A DNA stretch of 31,954 bases, taken from IMG/VR virus record IMGVR_UViG_3300032221_000024, positions 1 through 31,954 of that record. One strand, written 5' to 3'. A program made the position numbers and the translations under genes. The first letter of the stretch is position 1. Each line of letters starts with the position of its first letter. The stretch is from a virus (taxonomy: Duplodnaviria > Caudoviricetes). Below, in pieces: positions 3,681 to 31,661 of the stretch. The notes below the pieces were generated by a model. It did no database searches. It had not been told where the DNA came from and saw nothing but the letters and a program-made list of their open reading frames with translations.

Positions 3681-4446
3681 GGAAATTGCTTTAGCCAATC
3701 AATTAGATGCTTTGCAAAGGCGTTACGAGAGGCGATACGAAAAGCAGATTTATACGGCTTTAAAGAAGCAATTAAAGCCTTATTTGGACGCTATTAAAGA
3801 GGCGCCAGGGAATATAAACGAGTTCGACCTAATTAGTCCAGCGCCATTGGCTGACGTTTTAGAGGACCTTTACGTTACCGCTGGCGTTGCGTATGCGGAC
3901 GCAATGTATAACGCAATACAACCGCCAACAAAAGCAACTAAAGAAGCGTTACGCGCTGGATGGCGTGACTTTATGCGACGCTTTGCCGTGGTTAATATAA
4001 CCGGTTTACTGCTAGACATTAATAAAACCTCGCGAGACATTATCCAGAGAATAGTTACTATTGGTTTACGGGATGGCAAAGGGGTTCCAGACATTGCGCG
4101 GACAATAGAGCAAAGCGTTGGCGCCATATTTACCAACCGATCCAAATTGATTGCACGGACTGAAATGGTAAAGGCAACCAACACCGCGGCAATGCAATCG
4201 TCCGCTACCTCGGATTTTATGTACGAAAAGAAATGGCTACCAGCCAGCGACCAACGTACTCGTCCGGATCACTTGGCAATGCTTAATTCTCAATGGATTC
4301 CTTTCGACGCAAAGTTTAGCGTTGGTGGCGTTCAGATGGACCGACCAGGCGACCCAAGCGCGCCAGCCTCTCAAGTATGTAATTGCCGCTGCAAGGTTGT
4401 ATTTAGATTAATGCGAGACGTTGACGGCTTACCGATTCGTAAATGA
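3661..4446 (+). CDS. Minor head/head morphogenesis protein (Mu gpF/SPP1 gp7 family)
   Basis: RSKLIARTE, KKWL...DQRTRPDH, PGDP...CNCRC. Confidence 0.9.
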   Translation: MPKPTRKEIALANQLDALQRRYERRYEKQIYTALKKQLKPYLDAIKEAPGNINEFDLISPAPLADVLEDLYVTAGVAYADAMYNAIQPPTKATKEALRAGWRDFMRRFAVVNITGLLLDINKTSRDIIQRIVTIGLRDGKGVPDIARTIEQSVGAIFTNRSKLIARTEMVKATNTAAMQSSATSDFMYEKKWLPASDQRTRPDHLAMLNSQWIPFDAKFSVGGVQMDRPGDPSAPASQVCNCRCKVVFRLMRDVDGLPIRK

Positions 4447-5021
4447 TTGCAAAGGTTATTAATTTGGATTCACGCCGTGATAAATGGCGCGCGTGCGAAA
4501 TGGAGTTGGGGCCGCACTTTGAACTTGAGCGCGTTTCCGCAATACGCCACGAATGGGGATGGGTTGGACTAGCCAAAACATTTAATAAAATATTTGCAGA
4601 AGCCGAGGGCGACGTTTTAATTTTTGAAGACGACGCAACATATAGAGGATGGGTAACTAATCTTTTAAACGCAATTAAGGATTTACCGGAAGGCTGGGAA
4701 ATGTTAATGCTTGGCGCAAATATTAAGGATCAAAGGATTGACAGGATAAACAACACGTTGGCCAGAACGTACGGCGCCTGGACAACTCACGGCATTTACT
4801 ATTCTCACAAACTTTGCAAAGAGTTATCAAACCTAGAGTTTAGCGTTCCAATAGACGAATACTTTAGGACTGTTGTACATCCACGCGGCAACAGTTACGT
4901 CGTTTACCCGTTCCTAAGTTACCAGCGTCCAAGCGAGTCAGATATAGAAGGCGGCTTTAAAGATTACACTAATTTATTTTATCAATCCGAGGAAAGAGTT
5001 GGCTATTTTGTAAACCAGTAA
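4443..5021 (+). CDS. Glycosyltransferase, GT25-like (GT-A fold)
   Basis: VINLDSRRDKW N-terminus, LIFEDDA motif, PIDEYF, QRPSESDI; ATGA overlap with gp7. Confidence 0.8.
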   Translation: MIAKVINLDSRRDKWRACEMELGPHFELERVSAIRHEWGWVGLAKTFNKIFAEAEGDVLIFEDDATYRGWVTNLLNAIKDLPEGWEMLMLGANIKDQRIDRINNTLARTYGAWTTHGIYYSHKLCKELSNLEFSVPIDEYFRTVVHPRGNSYVVYPFLSYQRPSESDIEGGFKDYTNLFYQSEERVGYFVNQ

Positions 5022-7100: not shown

Positions 7101-8087
7101 ATGAATGTAGTTTTTTTTGTACACGCGTGGGCGGGAACGCATAACTCGGGCGCCGAGTGGACAGTTCAGCACTACGCCAAATTTTTGCATCAAAAGGGAT
7201 GCAGCATCGAGGTAATTTTACCAGAAAACCAGATTTATCCAGACGGCGAAAAGTTTGCGTTTATAAAATTTATAACCGGCTATTATTCCAATGAGTTTTT
7301 TTTAGCGCTCAGTAATGCCGACGTTGTCTTTACCCATTTAGATAATACAGGCGTTGCAATTAATTGGGCAAGGCATTTTAAAAAGCATTTGATTTTCCTT
7401 AGCCACAACGACCACGATTATAGAATTGTGCGAGCAAGGCAAGCCAATATTTCGGTCGTTTATAACAACAAAGCAAACGAGAAAAACGTAGGCGGTGGTC
7501 CTTATCCTAACCCGTCAATTGTTTGCAAACCTCCGATTTTCCCAGACGACGTAAAATATAACCGCAAGCACGGGCAGAACGTTACGCTTATTAATTGCAA
7601 CGAAAACAAAGGAGGCAAAATACTGGTGGAACTTGCCAAGCGATTGCCTAAAATTAAATTTCTTGGTGTGCTAGGTAGTTACGGCGAGCAGATAATTGAC
7701 GACACTTATAAAAATTTAAAGTACGTTCCGCAAACGCCTGACATTCATTTGATTTATGGCAAATCAAACATTGTTTTGATGCCAAGCGATTACGAGAGTT
7801 ATGGACGTGTAGCGTTAGAGGCTGCGATTAATCGGTTACCAGTTATTTGCACGCCAACAGACGGCTTAAAAGAATGCCTTGGGGCCGCTGGCCTTTACTT
7901 TGACCGCGACGACCTAGACGGAATGGCTAAGAAAATTGAGGAATTAATGACAGACGAAATTCTTTACGACTTTCACCAAAACATTATGCGCAACTTGGCA
8001 GACGAACGGCTAAAATACCAAGACCAAGAATTGGAAGCATTTTATACCTTTATCGTTGACAAAGCAAAACGAGATTATAATGAGTGA
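7101..8087 (+). CDS. Glycosyltransferase, GT4-like (GT-B fold)
   Basis: SGAE N-terminal loop, NKGG, LMPSDYESYGRVALEAA (EX7E), LPVI....GLKE. Confidence 0.9.
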   Translation: MNVVFFVHAWAGTHNSGAEWTVQHYAKFLHQKGCSIEVILPENQIYPDGEKFAFIKFITGYYSNEFFLALSNADVVFTHLDNTGVAINWARHFKKHLIFLSHNDHDYRIVRARQANISVVYNNKANEKNVGGGPYPNPSIVCKPPIFPDDVKYNRKHGQNVTLINCNENKGGKILVELAKRLPKIKFLGVLGSYGEQIIDDTYKNLKYVPQTPDIHLIYGKSNIVLMPSDYESYGRVALEAAINRLPVICTPTDGLKECLGAAGLYFDRDDLDGMAKKIEELMTDEILYDFHQNIMRNLADERLKYQDQELEAFYTFIVDKAKRDYNE

Positions 8088-27447: not shown

Positions 27448-27809
27448 CAAAAGAGCAAATCGTTCAAGAGTTGCAATTTAGGGCAACTCAGAAATATCTA
27501 ATTTACTTGGCGCTCCAGGAGATTATGCTAGACAATTACGAAGACTGCACGTTTTTAAAGCATTACGACCACGACCTAACGGTTAAGCATAAAAACATTA
27601 TAAACTCGTTACAACGCAACGCAACAAAGGCATTTAAGTTTTTGGAGGGTTACGACGAAGGCGAGGCAACTATTAAGCAGTTTCACGATTTCGTCAAGTT
27701 GTTTGAGCGCATTCACGAATCTATTGACTGGGGTGGCTCAGTATATACCGACTGCTTGGCAGCCGTTGAACAAATTATTAACGATTATGAGAAGGCCAAT
27801 ACTAACTGA
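27435..27809 (+). CDS. Hypothetical protein
   Basis: 124-aa ORF in operon. Confidence 0.65.
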   Translation: MDGLTKEQIVQELQFRATQKYLIYLALQEIMLDNYEDCTFLKHYDHDLTVKHKNIINSLQRNATKAFKFLEGYDEGEATIKQFHDFVKLFERIHESIDWGGSVYTDCLAAVEQIINDYEKANTN

Positions 27810-27936
27810 AGACGAAAAGCAACTGATCTTTGAAATGTGGCAAGACAGAACGCCAACCAAGGTAATTGCTATTAAGTTAAACCGGACTTACGCTTGCATT
27901 TATTTTCAACTAAAGAAAAGGTATTTAGTTGGATAA
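27787..27936 (+). CDS. Small HTH protein
   Basis: LTEDEKQLIFEMW....TKVIAIKLNRTYACIY; ATG 27787 preferred over TTG 27703. Confidence 0.65.
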   Translation: MRRPILTEDEKQLIFEMWQDRTPTKVIAIKLNRTYACIYFQLKKRYLVG

Positions 27937-27956
27937 TTTTAAAAGCGTTATATTTG
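27929..27956 (+). promoter_or_regulatory. Promoter for the replication operon
   Basis: TTG-N17-TATATTTG; near-identical to 31414-31441. Confidence 0.7.
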
Positions 27957-27960
27957 ATAA

Positions 27961-28049
27961 ATGAAACATCCAAGAGGTCGGAGCCTTGAATGTTTCATAG
28001 GTGAAAACCAACCAGGCCCATCGACTCCGACACGATAGGGCCTTTTTTT
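27961..28049 (+). ncRNA. Candidate structured cis-regulatory RNA leader (kissing loops plus terminator)
   Basis: Three hairpins; loop GTCGGAG (27977-27983) is complementary to loop CTCCGAC (28025-28031); GAAA tetraloop; last stem runs into a U tract. Confidence 0.7.
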
Positions 28050-28056
28050 ATTTCTT

Positions 28057-28785
28057 ATGCAAGGCAAAAAATCATTTGTTCTATATACCGACCAAAGAGA
28101 GGTATTTGAGGAACTAACCGACGAAGACGCTGGAAAGTTGATTAAGCATATTTTTGCCTACGTCAACGACGAAAACCCAGAAACAAACGACAAACTTTTA
28201 AAGGTTGCTTTTTTACCAATTAAGACCCAGTTAAAAAGGGATTTGGTAGTTTGGGACGAAAAGAAACAACAACGCGCTGAGGCTGGACGTAAGGGAGGTC
28301 TAGCAAAGGCTAGCAATGCTAGCGAAGTCCTAGCAAAACCTAGCAATGCTAAGCAAAACCTAGCAAACGTGGCTGTTAATGTAAATGGTAATGTTAATGT
28401 AAATGATAATGTTAATGTAAATGGTAATGTAATAAATAAAGAAAGCGCTAACGCACTTTTTTCTTTGGATGATATCTTTAATGATTTTAATAAAGAAAAG
28501 CCTTTAAAGCGTCCGTACTTTGAGCGAATGAGCGCAGTACATTCAACAGATACAGAAACAATTAAAAGCCATTTTAAAAAATGGGCCATAATTAAAGAAG
28601 GCGAATCAATGACAATTGCAAAAGCAGAAAACTCCTTTAACCTTTATTTGTCAAATAATTTAAAAAGTAATTTTAAGGCTTCAGAGAAAAAAGAAACTTA
28701 CAACGTATTTGAGGAAATCTGGCAAGACATTCAAAAAGAAAAAGAACAATTAAAAAACCAAAACAATGACGGAGACAATTATTAA
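28057..28785 (+). CDS. Putative replication initiator (DUF6291-like N-terminus)
   Basis: KKSFVLY...LTDEDAGKLIKHIFAY; RAEAGRKGG linker; internal DNA repeats. Confidence 0.7.
   Translation: MQGKKSFVLYTDQREVFEELTDEDAGKLIKHIFAYVNDENPETNDKLLKVAFLPIKTQLKRDLVVWDEKKQQRAEAGRKGGLAKASNASEVLAKPSNAKQNLANVAVNVNGNVNVNDNVNVNGNVINKESANALFSLDDIFNDFNKEKPLKRPYFERMSAVHSTDTETIKSHFKKWAIIKEGESMTIAKAENSFNLYLSNNLKSNFKASEKKETYNVFEEIWQDIQKEKEQLKNQNNDGDNY
28300..28432. repeat. Iteron-like array plus AT-rich repeats; candidate replication origin
   Basis: CTAGC at 28300, 28310, 28319, 28330, 28340, 28360, then tandem AATGTA/AATGTT/AATGGT/AATGAT units. Confidence 0.65.
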
Positions 28786-29395
28786 ACACCTAAGAAAAAT
28801 GGAGTTCGTTTGCGGACTTAAGCAGTTTAAAGAATACAAAAAAGAGGAAGCGACCGAGTTAATTAACTGCCTAAATGATCTATTTAAAAAATTTGGCTGG
28901 ATGACCGAGGAAAGAGTAGACTACATTTTACAGGCTGGAATGCGGGGCCAATACGGCGACTTTTACCACGTTAATGAAAAGACGGTTAACGGCTGGATTA
29001 ACCAGTATTACCAGCATCACCAAAGCCAAATCGTTATGGAAATCCAAAACCTCCACAACAAAGACCGAGAACAATCCCCAGAGGAAATTGCGCACTGGAA
29101 TGAAATCGGAAAGCAGACGTTTAAAGACAACTACCAGCACGCAAAAGAAACTGGGACTTGCAGACACTTAGCAGAGTGGGGAGTTTATTGGTTTAACCGA
29201 TTCCAAGAAAAAGGCATTTTAAAACCTTGGTTGTTTAACGTTGAGGAAATCGAGCAAGACGTTCGCAAAGAATTGCGGTTAACTAGCAGATACGTTGAAG
29301 AGTCAACAGTTGGCGCCAAAACAAAAAATAAGATTTGGAAATTGTTTATTTTGGATTCGATTAAAGAGAATAAAAAACTCGACGAAATTATATGA
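28766..29395 (+). CDS. Hypothetical protein downstream of initiator (possible replication accessory)
   Basis: 209-aa ORF overlapping the initiator end; no P-loop seen. Confidence 0.6.
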   Translation: MTETIIKHLRKMEFVCGLKQFKEYKKEEATELINCLNDLFKKFGWMTEERVDYILQAGMRGQYGDFYHVNEKTVNGWINQYYQHHQSQIVMEIQNLHNKDREQSPEEIAHWNEIGKQTFKDNYQHAKETGTCRHLAEWGVYWFNRFQEKGILKPWLFNVEEIEQDVRKELRLTSRYVEESTVGAKTKNKIWKLFILDSIKENKKLDEII

Positions 29396-30600
29396 GGCAC
29401 GGCTCTCTTTTTTCTGGTATTGGCGGCTTTGACCTAGCCTCTGAGTGGATGGGTTGGGAAAACGTTTTCCATTGCGAATGGAACGAATTTGGACAGAAAG
29501 TATTAAAACATTATTGGCCTAAAGCAATTACATACAATGACATTACCAAAACAGACTTCACTATTCACAGAGGATCAATCGACATTATTACAGGAGGATT
29601 CCCTTGCCAACCCTACTCAATGGCTGGAAAACGACTCGGAAAAGAAGACGAGCGCCATCTTTGGCCAGAAATGCGTCGAGCAATTCGAGAAATTCGACCG
29701 ACCTGGGTCGTGGGCGAAAACGTTTTCGGCCTTGTTAATTGGAATGGAGGGATGGTCTTCGAAGAGGTGCAGGCTGATTTGGAGGCTGAAGGGTACGAAG
29801 TACAAGCGTTTGTTCTTCCTGCTGCAAGCGTCAACGCGCCACACAAAAGGGAACGAATCTGGATTGTTGCTCACTCCAAATCTTGTACAGATAGCGGAAA
29901 CTCCAGAGAAGTATCAAGAGAGGCAAAAGAAGAGGACAGAGAATGGACTGAATCAAGCACCTCATCCAAACAACAAATACAACTGCCTACTGAGCCAAGT
30001 ACTTTATTCGGGAATGTTACCAACTCCAACTGCAGTACAGAGAGACCATCCAGAGAGAGTGGAGGAATTAAAGAAAACTGGAGCAGAAACAATTCACAGT
30101 CGGAAAAATGGAGAATTAAGGCCGAACTCGATAATAGATTATATGAATTTTCACAATATGCTTCCGACTCCGAACTCAAGGGATTACAAAGATGCTCAGA
30201 GTCCAGAGAAATACGAAGCGAGAAAGGAGAAATGCGCGGAAAAAGGAATAAACTTGCAACTCAGTTTACCTCAATATCTAACGAATCAAATTTTGCCCAC
30301 TCCAACAACTCACGACTCAAAGCATTCTCAATTCAAAAGCCCGAGTTGGCAGAGGAGAATAGATCAACATCACCTAGCGGAAACAGTTCTAGATTCATTT
30401 GTGGAGGATTACGATGGGAAACCTTCCCAATTAGCGCCCCAATTTGTGATGGAAATGATGGGATTTCCGCCAGATTGGACGGCATTACCTTTTCTAAATG
30501 GCGAAACGAATCAATCAAAGCCGGAGGAAACGCAATCGTCCCTCAAGTAGTGCATCAAATATTTAAAGCAATCGAACAATACAACAACTTAAACAAATAA
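29392..30600 (+). CDS. DNA (cytosine-5) methyltransferase, alpha-like polypeptide (motifs I-VIII and X)
   Basis: SLFSGIGG (I), GGFPCQ (IV), ENV (VI), HKRERIW (VIII), GGNAIVPQV (X); motif IX absent from this frame. Confidence 0.9.
   Translation: MRHGSLFSGIGGFDLASEWMGWENVFHCEWNEFGQKVLKHYWPKAITYNDITKTDFTIHRGSIDIITGGFPCQPYSMAGKRLGKEDERHLWPEMRRAIREIRPTWVVGENVFGLVNWNGGMVFEEVQADLEAEGYEVQAFVLPAASVNAPHKRERIWIVAHSKSCTDSGNSREVSREAKEEDREWTESSTSSKQQIQLPTEPSTLFGNVTNSNCSTERPSRESGGIKENWSRNNSQSEKWRIKAELDNRLYEFSQYASDSELKGLQRCSESREIRSEKGEMRGKRNKLATQFTSISNESNFAHSNNSRLKAFSIQKPELAEENRSTSPSGNSSRFICGGLRWETFPISAPICDGNDGISARLDGITFSKWRNESIKAGGNAIVPQVVHQIFKAIEQYNNLNK
29537..30550 (+). CDS. Nested +1-frame ORF: beta-like methyltransferase polypeptide (target-recognition modules plus motif IX)
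   Basis: 337 codons without a stop; four (L)PTP/LTP modules; QLAPQFVMEMMGFPPDWT resembles motif IX. Confidence 0.75.
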   Translation: MTLPKQTSLFTEDQSTLLQEDSLANPTQWLENDSEKKTSAIFGQKCVEQFEKFDRPGSWAKTFSALLIGMEGWSSKRCRLIWRLKGTKYKRLFFLLQASTRHTKGNESGLLLTPNLVQIAETPEKYQERQKKRTENGLNQAPHPNNKYNCLLSQVLYSGMLPTPTAVQRDHPERVEELKKTGAETIHSRKNGELRPNSIIDYMNFHNMLPTPNSRDYKDAQSPEKYEARKEKCAEKGINLQLSLPQYLTNQILPTPTTHDSKHSQFKSPSWQRRIDQHHLAETVLDSFVEDYDGKPSQLAPQFVMEMMGFPPDWTALPFLNGETNQSKPEETQSSLK

Positions 30601-31394: not shown

Positions 31395-31413
31395 ACAAAT
31401 TATCTGTTTTTGA

Positions 31414-31441
31414 TTGGATAATTATTTAAAAGTTATATTTG
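31414..31441 (+). promoter_or_regulatory. Bacteroidota-type promoter
   Basis: TTG-N17-TATATTTG. Confidence 0.7.
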
Positions 31442-31457
31442 CAGAAACAACAACAAA

Positions 31458-31661
31458 ATGAGTTTAGAAGAGGGTCGACTAATTAGACAAGCACGAAAGC
31501 GCAGCGGATTTACGCAAATAGATTTAGCGGATAAAATTGGGATTAGTTTCCAGCCTATTAACAGAATAGAGAATGGATTTGAAAGCGTTTCCCTACACAA
31601 CTTGCGGCTTATTTGCGAGGCTATTGGATTAGAGGTAATAATTCAGAATAAGAATGCCTAA
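31458..31661 (+). CDS. XRE/Cro-family HTH regulator
   Basis: IRQARKRSGFTQIDLADKIGISFQPINRIENG...SLHNLRLICEAIG. Confidence 0.88.
   Translation: MSLEEGRLIRQARKRSGFTQIDLADKIGISFQPINRIENGFESVSLHNLRLICEAIGLEVIIQNKNA

Follow-up and report, generated by a model that had tools for sequence, protein, structure and literature searches.

A conserved leader RNA with complementary hairpin loops precedes phage replication genes and likely acts by transcription attenuation

A leader of about 90 nt in which the loops of two hairpins are complementary lies directly before a likely replication initiator gene in the phage genome analyzed here (IMG/VR record IMGVR_UViG_3300032221_000024; the window is a complete 32-kb genome of 31,954 nucleotides with direct terminal repeats at its ends). 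Comparison of related loci strongly supports the conclusion that this leader is a conserved cis-regulatory RNA placed before replication genes. On this comparative evidence, it is a real and widespread phage RNA without an Rfam family, and kissing-loop transcription attenuation of the predicted kind is likely. The leader recurs in Elemovirus, Lillamyvirus, Harrekavirus, and Baltivirus and in many uncultured freshwater phages, before unrelated initiators. A first-pass annotation of this DNA had read the element as a cis-regulatory RNA, or a processed small RNA, gating the replication genes. The conserved cis RNA was borne out by covariation and position, but gating at the level of transcription is suggested by the architecture and by the likeness to guanidine-IV RNAs. 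How lytic phages of Bacteroidota time or limit their replication genes has been little studied, and the leader would extend the kissing-loop antitermination of guanidine-IV to a setting that has no known ligand and a variable code.

Anatomy of the leader and its genome setting

The leader, on the plus strand throughout, follows a -7 box of the Bacteroidota sigma-A type TAnnTTTG (TATATTTG, 27949 to 27956), which is conserved before homologous leaders and predicts a promoter. Since the corresponding box in Flavobacterium sits at -12 to -5 in the accessible part of the published account (PMC9723704), transcription is predicted to start at 27961, the first base of P1. The 5' hairpin P1 (27961 to 27998) presents the purine-rich kissing strand, and homologues keep a 5' hairpin of varying sequence and length. 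Its loop X, GUCGGAG (27977 to 27983), is a 7-nt code of the form GUnnnAG that covaries with its partner, X'. P2 (28000 to 28009) is the weak linker hairpin of one subclass. P3 (28014 to 28043) is a stable, G+C-rich, terminator-type hairpin, conserved before the U tract of a predicted intrinsic terminator (28043 to 28049) on the sense strand; its loop carries X', CUCCGAC (28025 to 28031), the exact 7-nt complement of X, 41 nt downstream of it. The ATG of the initiator gene lies at 28057, 7 nt beyond the U tract. The complementarity, the distance to the ATG, and the coordinates and pairings of the box, the three hairpins, and the U tract were all present in the sequence as first annotated.

Folding of 27955 to 28060 gave -30.9 kcal/mol (z = -3.34), a value reached by 1 of 200 shuffled sequences. 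The separate hairpins were calculated at -12.5 (P1), -1.4 (P2), and -13.8 (P3) kcal/mol, and the 7-bp duplex of X with X' was calculated at -10.7 kcal/mol, versus the -13.8 of P3. In the minimum free energy structure the P1 loop is closed internally; the form with the loop open (-11.9 kcal/mol) is only 0.6 kcal/mol dearer. P3, with its 9-nt loop and a bulge, was not listed by a consensus terminator scanner whose rule is a loop of 3 to 8 nt. A descriptor consisting of the box, a hairpin, complementary loops, a terminator, and a U run found exactly one site in the 32-kb genome and 1 match in 20 Markov resamples.

Two other features of the first-pass annotation were located but proved incidental to the leader. 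The 25-codon open reading frame that spans the element (27961 to 28038) is present, but it is not a conserved leader part: of 32 leaders, 14 have an AUG among their first 14 nt, opening frames of 10, 15, 25, 48, or 58 codons in varying register, and the open reading frame is absent from the other 18, which rules out a leader-peptide role. Similarly, P2 is where it had been placed, but a GNRA loop like its own occurs in only 2 of the 78 homologues with a P2, so importance of the GNRA loop was also ruled out.

The gene directly after the leader (28057 to 28785, plus strand) encodes a DUF6291 protein (Pfam PF19808). This protein is likely the replication initiator, because annotated relatives are called "replication protein" and adjoin primase, helicase, or helicase loader genes and because the gene contains an origin-like array (28300 to 28433, plus strand) of seven iteron-like repeats phased at about 10 bp, followed by A/T-rich 6-mer repeats. 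The layout of this array is one that we take to resemble the lambda-O type. The DUF6291 protein matched no PDB entry by sequence or by fold, and its predicted fold was of low confidence (pTM 0.33). Upstream and downstream, the order of genes in the genome is head, tail, and lysis genes, ERF, gp157, the DUF6291 gene, a C5 methylase gene, and a RusA-like gene. No tyrosine integrase was found in the 32 kb. The host is inferred to belong to the Bacteroidota, given the TAnnTTTG box and the existence of relatives infecting Flavobacteriaceae.

Several other features of the genome were observed. A second TATATTTG box precedes a Cro/CI-type helix-turn-helix (HTH) gene (31458 to 31661) and has no kissing leader; the run upstream of it (31399 to 31441) is shared with the leader promoter (27916 to 27956), which suggests a common promoter class. 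A 49-amino-acid HTH-like open reading frame (27787 to 27936, plus strand) with a weak HTH_23 match stops just before the leader promoter; its 3' end is conserved in close relatives, and it is a candidate regulator. Any transcripts arriving from upstream of the leader promoter would meet the same predicted terminator. A methyltransferase gene and two glycosyltransferase genes lie amid the packaging and head genes (82 to 717, 4443 to 5021, and 7101 to 8087), and the C5 methylase gene (29392 to 30600, plus strand) contains a nested 337-codon open reading frame in another frame (29537 to 30550, plus strand) without a Pfam hit.

Conservation and covariation of the leader

The first-pass annotation had proposed that the regions upstream of homologous initiator genes be compared. 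Loci of 80 DUF6291 relatives were collected by protein, with no selection on RNA; 7 of these were dropped as lacking upstream DNA or the gene start, although two of the dropped loci (L005 and L007) still show the 3' part of the leader. Among close relatives, the complementary-loop leader stood directly before the ATG in all 37 loci with enough upstream DNA, and it lay within 1.2 kb in 16 of 36 distant loci and was lacking from the other 20, whose upstream flank was checked to 1.2 kb. The leader was likewise present at 59 of 70 loci of Lin1244_N (a synonym of DUF4373), 8 of the 11 misses beginning inside the gene. For a third initiator family, it was present at 49 of 80. What is kept is the design, that is, the -7 promoter box, a hairpin, a terminator hairpin with a complementary loop, a U tract, and the start codon, the last about 13 nt past P3 on average. 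As the descriptor demands complementarity, the noncircular figures are the fraction of protein-anchored loci with a leader and the covariation tests; a scripted descriptor was used because the covariance model from a MAFFT alignment had 10 pairs only and little reach.

In 7 of 10 annotated phage records examined, the replication operon begins with the leader; these records are those of the cultured phages elemoA_7-9A, 11b, lillamy9-1, Harreka_1, phi19:3, phi13:2, and JQ. The elemo leader was detected with a relaxed descriptor only, and that of JQ, owing to its variant box, was identified by visual inspection. No leader was detected in the 30 kb examined from Riemerella phage PJA1, nor in 12 kb from a Porphyromonas phage and 10 kb from a gut phage contig. 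A TATATTTG box in PJA1 introduces a different long leader (L549:25540-25715); distant segments of this leader form an inverted repeat, and a U tract precedes a start codon. The first genes after the leader encode DUF6291, Lin1244_N, HTH_36, a methylase, HNH, BT4734-like proteins, and small uncharacterized products; since the first gene varies this widely, the leader is tied to the position and not to one protein. There was never more than one copy per locus. In one Bacteroidota metagenome-assembled genome (MAG) contig, from a phage with a CI-like repressor, the leader lies inside an early operon about 5.5 kb upstream of the initiator. An unannotated protein family of about 70 amino acids often lies between leader and initiator (13 loci, e.g., L469:14252-14464, L470:7780-7989, L480, L504, L508, L541, and L558). 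It has no homologue in this 32-kb genome, which rules out here a shared trans-acting small protein from that family.

Of 91 protein-anchored or cultured leaders, 90 have X and X' 40 to 48 nt apart (36 to 57 being allowed), although a long P1 accompanies a short P3 and vice versa. The P3 loop consists of 1 unpaired and 7 pairing bases in 87 of 137 unique leaders, and the P1 loop consists of 0 or 1 unpaired and 7 pairing bases in 98; by sequence, both loops are in kissing format with closing stems. P2 was called in 78 of the 137, and a two-hairpin class has an A/U-rich single strand in its place. Stems have no sequence in common across leader classes. T-rich sequence follows P3 in 120 of 135 leaders, a count partly required by the descriptor, versus A-rich sequence before P3 in 20. 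The sense strand folds better than the antisense strand in 112 of 137 leaders, and this asymmetry makes a DNA-level inverted repeat less likely.

Covariation was assessed with a pattern that leaves one pair free, and matches were split by a structure test that ignores that pair. The pattern found 120 viral loci, 91 of them unique and 87 of those complementary. All 70 structured viral matches and 44 of 45 structured metagenome matches were complementary, as were 17 of 21, 29 of 66, and 27 of 113 unstructured matches from viruses, metagenomes, and genomes, respectively. In cellular genomes, complementarity was at the 25% expected by chance (29 of 116 matches); two of the 116 are real, both in phage-like contigs of Bacteroidota MAGs. 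Across 401 Bacteroidota genomes the pattern matched 341 times, less than once per genome and, on visual comparison, no more often than a reversed-pattern control. A second class, in which the pyrimidine strand occupies the first loop, was complementary in 40 of 49 unique matches, versus about 4% by chance. Lack of loop complementarity or covariation in homologous leaders was what the first-pass annotation had said would speak against the element, and both were present.

At least 11 GU-led 7-mer codes occur across the leaders, six of them common among close freshwater relatives; the swapped class shows only three within its search pattern. Strong conservation is seen for the outer pairs (GU..AG with CU..AC) and for an unpaired A before X', in part because of how the set was built. 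When terminator loops were set against the 5' regions of leaders with a different code, a match of at least 7 bases was found in 33 of 7,504 pairs. Related leaders are not independent, the 126 of the forward class falling into 28 clusters at 80% identity. Natural orthogonal codes could become transcription-control parts for Bacteroidota. In the swapped class (L473 to L548), the first loop is larger and the code is followed by a conserved A/U tail, which the search pattern itself includes; the terminator hairpin carries a purine-rich internal loop (3x3 or 4x3) that might introduce a kink.

Proposed mechanism and alternatives

From the complementarity, spacing, loop format, and position of the leader, we propose a cis-acting kissing-loop antiterminator or attenuator that meters transcription of the replication operon, with the kiss blocking completion of the terminator. 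We regard this reading as moderately probable, and it was chosen because the layout matches that of guanidine-IV and a geometric model agrees in part. Host polymerase would start at 27961, as judged from the -7 box, and P1 would fold first. X' would emerge about 42 nt later, the top of P3 would fold, and X and X' could kiss while the linker was slack. Further zipping of P3 would consume the linker and put the kiss under strain, setting the kiss and full P3 in competition. If the kiss held, transcription would continue into the operon, and access to the start codon would improve as well; if the kiss failed, an RNA of about 90 nt would be released. The outcome would be metered or delayed expression of the initiator and helicase. 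The direction of the switch, with the kiss giving read-through, is taken by analogy from guanidine-IV only. The mechanism is directly testable, since cultured phage-host pairs carry the leader.

In a simple 120-degree model with full P3, the linker could not span the distance in 44 of the 78 three-hairpin leaders, and the kiss could coexist with the full terminator in the other 34; with only the top 4 bp of P3 formed, the linker was too short in none of the 78. The geometry for steric competition is therefore marginal, and this crude model agrees with it in part. Further observations weigh against the antiterminator. Complementarity to X reaches the 3' arm of P3 in 57 of 137 leaders only and is wholly absent there in 80, the total stopping at 7 to 9 bp; 20 of the 36 distant DUF6291 loci had no leader in the 1.2 kb of flank checked; and the comparison turned up no signal by which the switch could be regulated. 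Of seven sequencing runs screened for transcripts, none contained more than 7% of the sequence words searched; the four compared in detail consisted of contigs, three of them probably from DNA, and no contig piece among those listed covered the leader from end to end.

Two alternatives are built upon the same cis switch. In the first, which is possible but unlikely, the leader would sense its own abundance in trans: X' of terminated copies of about 90 nt would pair with X on newly made transcripts, which would prevent the kiss in cis and cause termination. Such action is attractive because the terminator loop of the released RNA would be exposed, formatted as a ready kissing loop, and because codes differ among near-identical leaders, in 10 of 80 nearest-neighbor links with 90% or higher identity outside the code. 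The diversity of codes fits as well, and no conserved antisense promoter of the -7 box type was found that could supply another competitor: an antisense -7 box occurred in 12 of the 135 leaders tested, fewer than the 25 among 135 control stretches. There is also a precedent in the P4 CI RNA, a same-strand RNA that, in the available part of the source, causes premature termination of replication genes (PMC4825925). For the central three pairs of the code, 15 of 240 sites differ, compared with 27 of 1,824 in stems, but these pairs were picked post hoc and were masked in the distance; for all seven pairs the excess was not significant (15/560, P = 0.07; P = 0.25 and 0.55 at looser cutoffs). Moreover, the codes are few and recur in unrelated leaders, with only three within the search pattern of the swapped class; the trans complex could not extend, because complementarity stops at 7 to 9 bp; and this genome has no tyrosine integrase. 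If the trans reading were true, one 90-nt element would provide replication feedback or copy number control together with code-specific exclusion of relatives, and Bacteroidota phages would need neither a repressor protein nor an antisense gene for such feedback.

The second alternative, which we consider improbable, is that a metabolite, an ion, or a phage protein stabilizes the kissing junction, as guanidine does in guanidine-IV. The shared architecture and the conserved outer pairs and unpaired A (again partly a product of set construction) are consistent with a ligand, as is the purine-rich internal loop retained in P3 of the swapped class. Against this, variation affects the central pairs, the stems, the linker, and even which loop comes first, whereas the surroundings of the guanidine-IV kiss are highly conserved, and the recurrent 70-amino-acid neighbor, as a candidate protein, has no homologue here.

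It is about as doubtful that the kiss coexists with a finished terminator and reinforces termination, locks a stable small RNA, or acts mainly on translation of the first gene. The kissing format of both loops with their closing stems, the linker that is long enough in 34 of 78 leaders, and the short distance from P3 to the start codon would all suit such a role. It is harder to reconcile with a leader that occurs once per locus, at the head of or within a replication or early operon in the cases examined, whose stems share no sequence across classes and which has no code-matched target within 2.5 kb. In this search, covering 135 leaders, there was no excess of a leader's own X or X' outside the two loops and hence no third copy of the code. 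Neither did the P3 loop pair preferentially with its own initiation region (-3.5 kcal/mol, versus -3.3 kcal/mol for the loops of other leaders). Shine-Dalgarno mimicry by the code was also set aside, AGGAG or UGAGA being present in some codes and absent from most. Finally, the reading as a plain leaky terminator whose 7-nt match arose by chance, as the chance-level complementarity in cellular genomes (29/116) might suggest, is very improbable and is refuted for the leader family by the covariation of structured (70/70 and 44/45) and swapped-class (40/49) matches over many codes, two loop orders, and seven cultured phages and by the scarcity of matches between different codes (33/7,504).

Relation to known systems and to catalogued RNAs

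The closest layout among the systems compared is that of guanidine-IV (the mepA motif) and Gd4v, in which, in the accessible parts of the reports, two hairpins are joined by a loop-loop pseudoknot and the 3' hairpin is an intrinsic terminator (PMC9788692, PMC11611296). In guanidine-IV, the loops kiss while the RNA is still being made and thereby impede the finishing of the terminator; as the terminator stem lengthens, the linker becomes shorter (PMC11611296, PMC9788692). As in guanidine-IV, the loop of the 5' hairpin pairs with that of the terminator hairpin, in the leader by covariation. In contrast, the kissing sequence of the leader varies in the middle of the code and can swap order (at least 11 codes plus the swapped class), guanidine-IV precedes transporters whereas the leader precedes phage replication genes, and no ligand is known for the leader. 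The variability of the kissing sequence excludes the leader from guanidine-IV, and the guanidine-IV covariance models of Rfam gave no hit at gathering score and none among hits to E = 10.

The P4 CI RNA and the pseudoknot of ColIb-P9 are functional analogues of the leader by our comparison, although neither shares the features that would make it a member. Like the leader, the former has same-strand complementary segments (seqA and seqC) before replication genes and acts by premature termination, but the source, as far as available, describes three sites, seqA, seqB, and seqC (PMC4825925), whereas the leader has two, with no third target and only 7 to 9 bp. Unlike P4, most carriers of the leader are phages not known to lysogenize, though one contig has a CI-like repressor. 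In the IncI-alpha/IncB rep pseudoknot (ColIb-P9 repZ), a hairpin loop pairs in cis downstream and switches the initiator on, and a competitor of the loop switches it off; the accessible account describes translational control with a leader peptide and the Inc antisense RNA, the pseudoknot opening a Shine-Dalgarno site (PMC4705826). The comparison with IncI/IncB plasmids made in the first-pass annotation therefore fits loosely but fails in its particulars, as the partner in the leader is a terminator loop and not a ribosome-binding site and neither a leader peptide frame nor an antisense -7 box is conserved. The plasmids pT181 and pIP501 attenuate rep through an antisense RNA, with a terminator in the initiator leader and a countertranscript that is needed. 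They differ from the leader, for which no conserved antisense promoter was found in the -7 box test.

The first-pass annotation could match the element to no named family, and this stood when Rfam was searched: nothing in the window reached gathering score, only weak unrelated hits lay near the leader, and no family fits it. In seven other loci, Rfam matched only tRNA and DUF805b, both away from the leader, the DUF805b motif lying at L469:12781-12815 in Flavobacterium phage lillamy9-1.

Parts of the leader may have been catalogued before. The accessible portion of Fremin et al. (2023) includes the candidate RNAs DNAVirus_187, DNAVirus_704, and DNAVirus_4859, freshwater phage structures of 49, 69, and 106 nt that sit no more than 25 bp upstream of DUF4373, DUF1376, HTH_36, or Phage_rep_O genes; all three were scored there as having no terminator (PMC10690425). 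Compared by their supplement rows alone, these candidates may be this leader motif or pieces of it. The available main text of that report does not use the word "kissing" and mentions a pseudoknot for gp32 only (PMC10690425). Within the open-access literature, to which the search was confined, subscription journals lying outside its scope, no paper describing the leader was found. Non-coding RNAs of phage phi38:1 are mentioned in the accessible part of one further report (PMC5335546).
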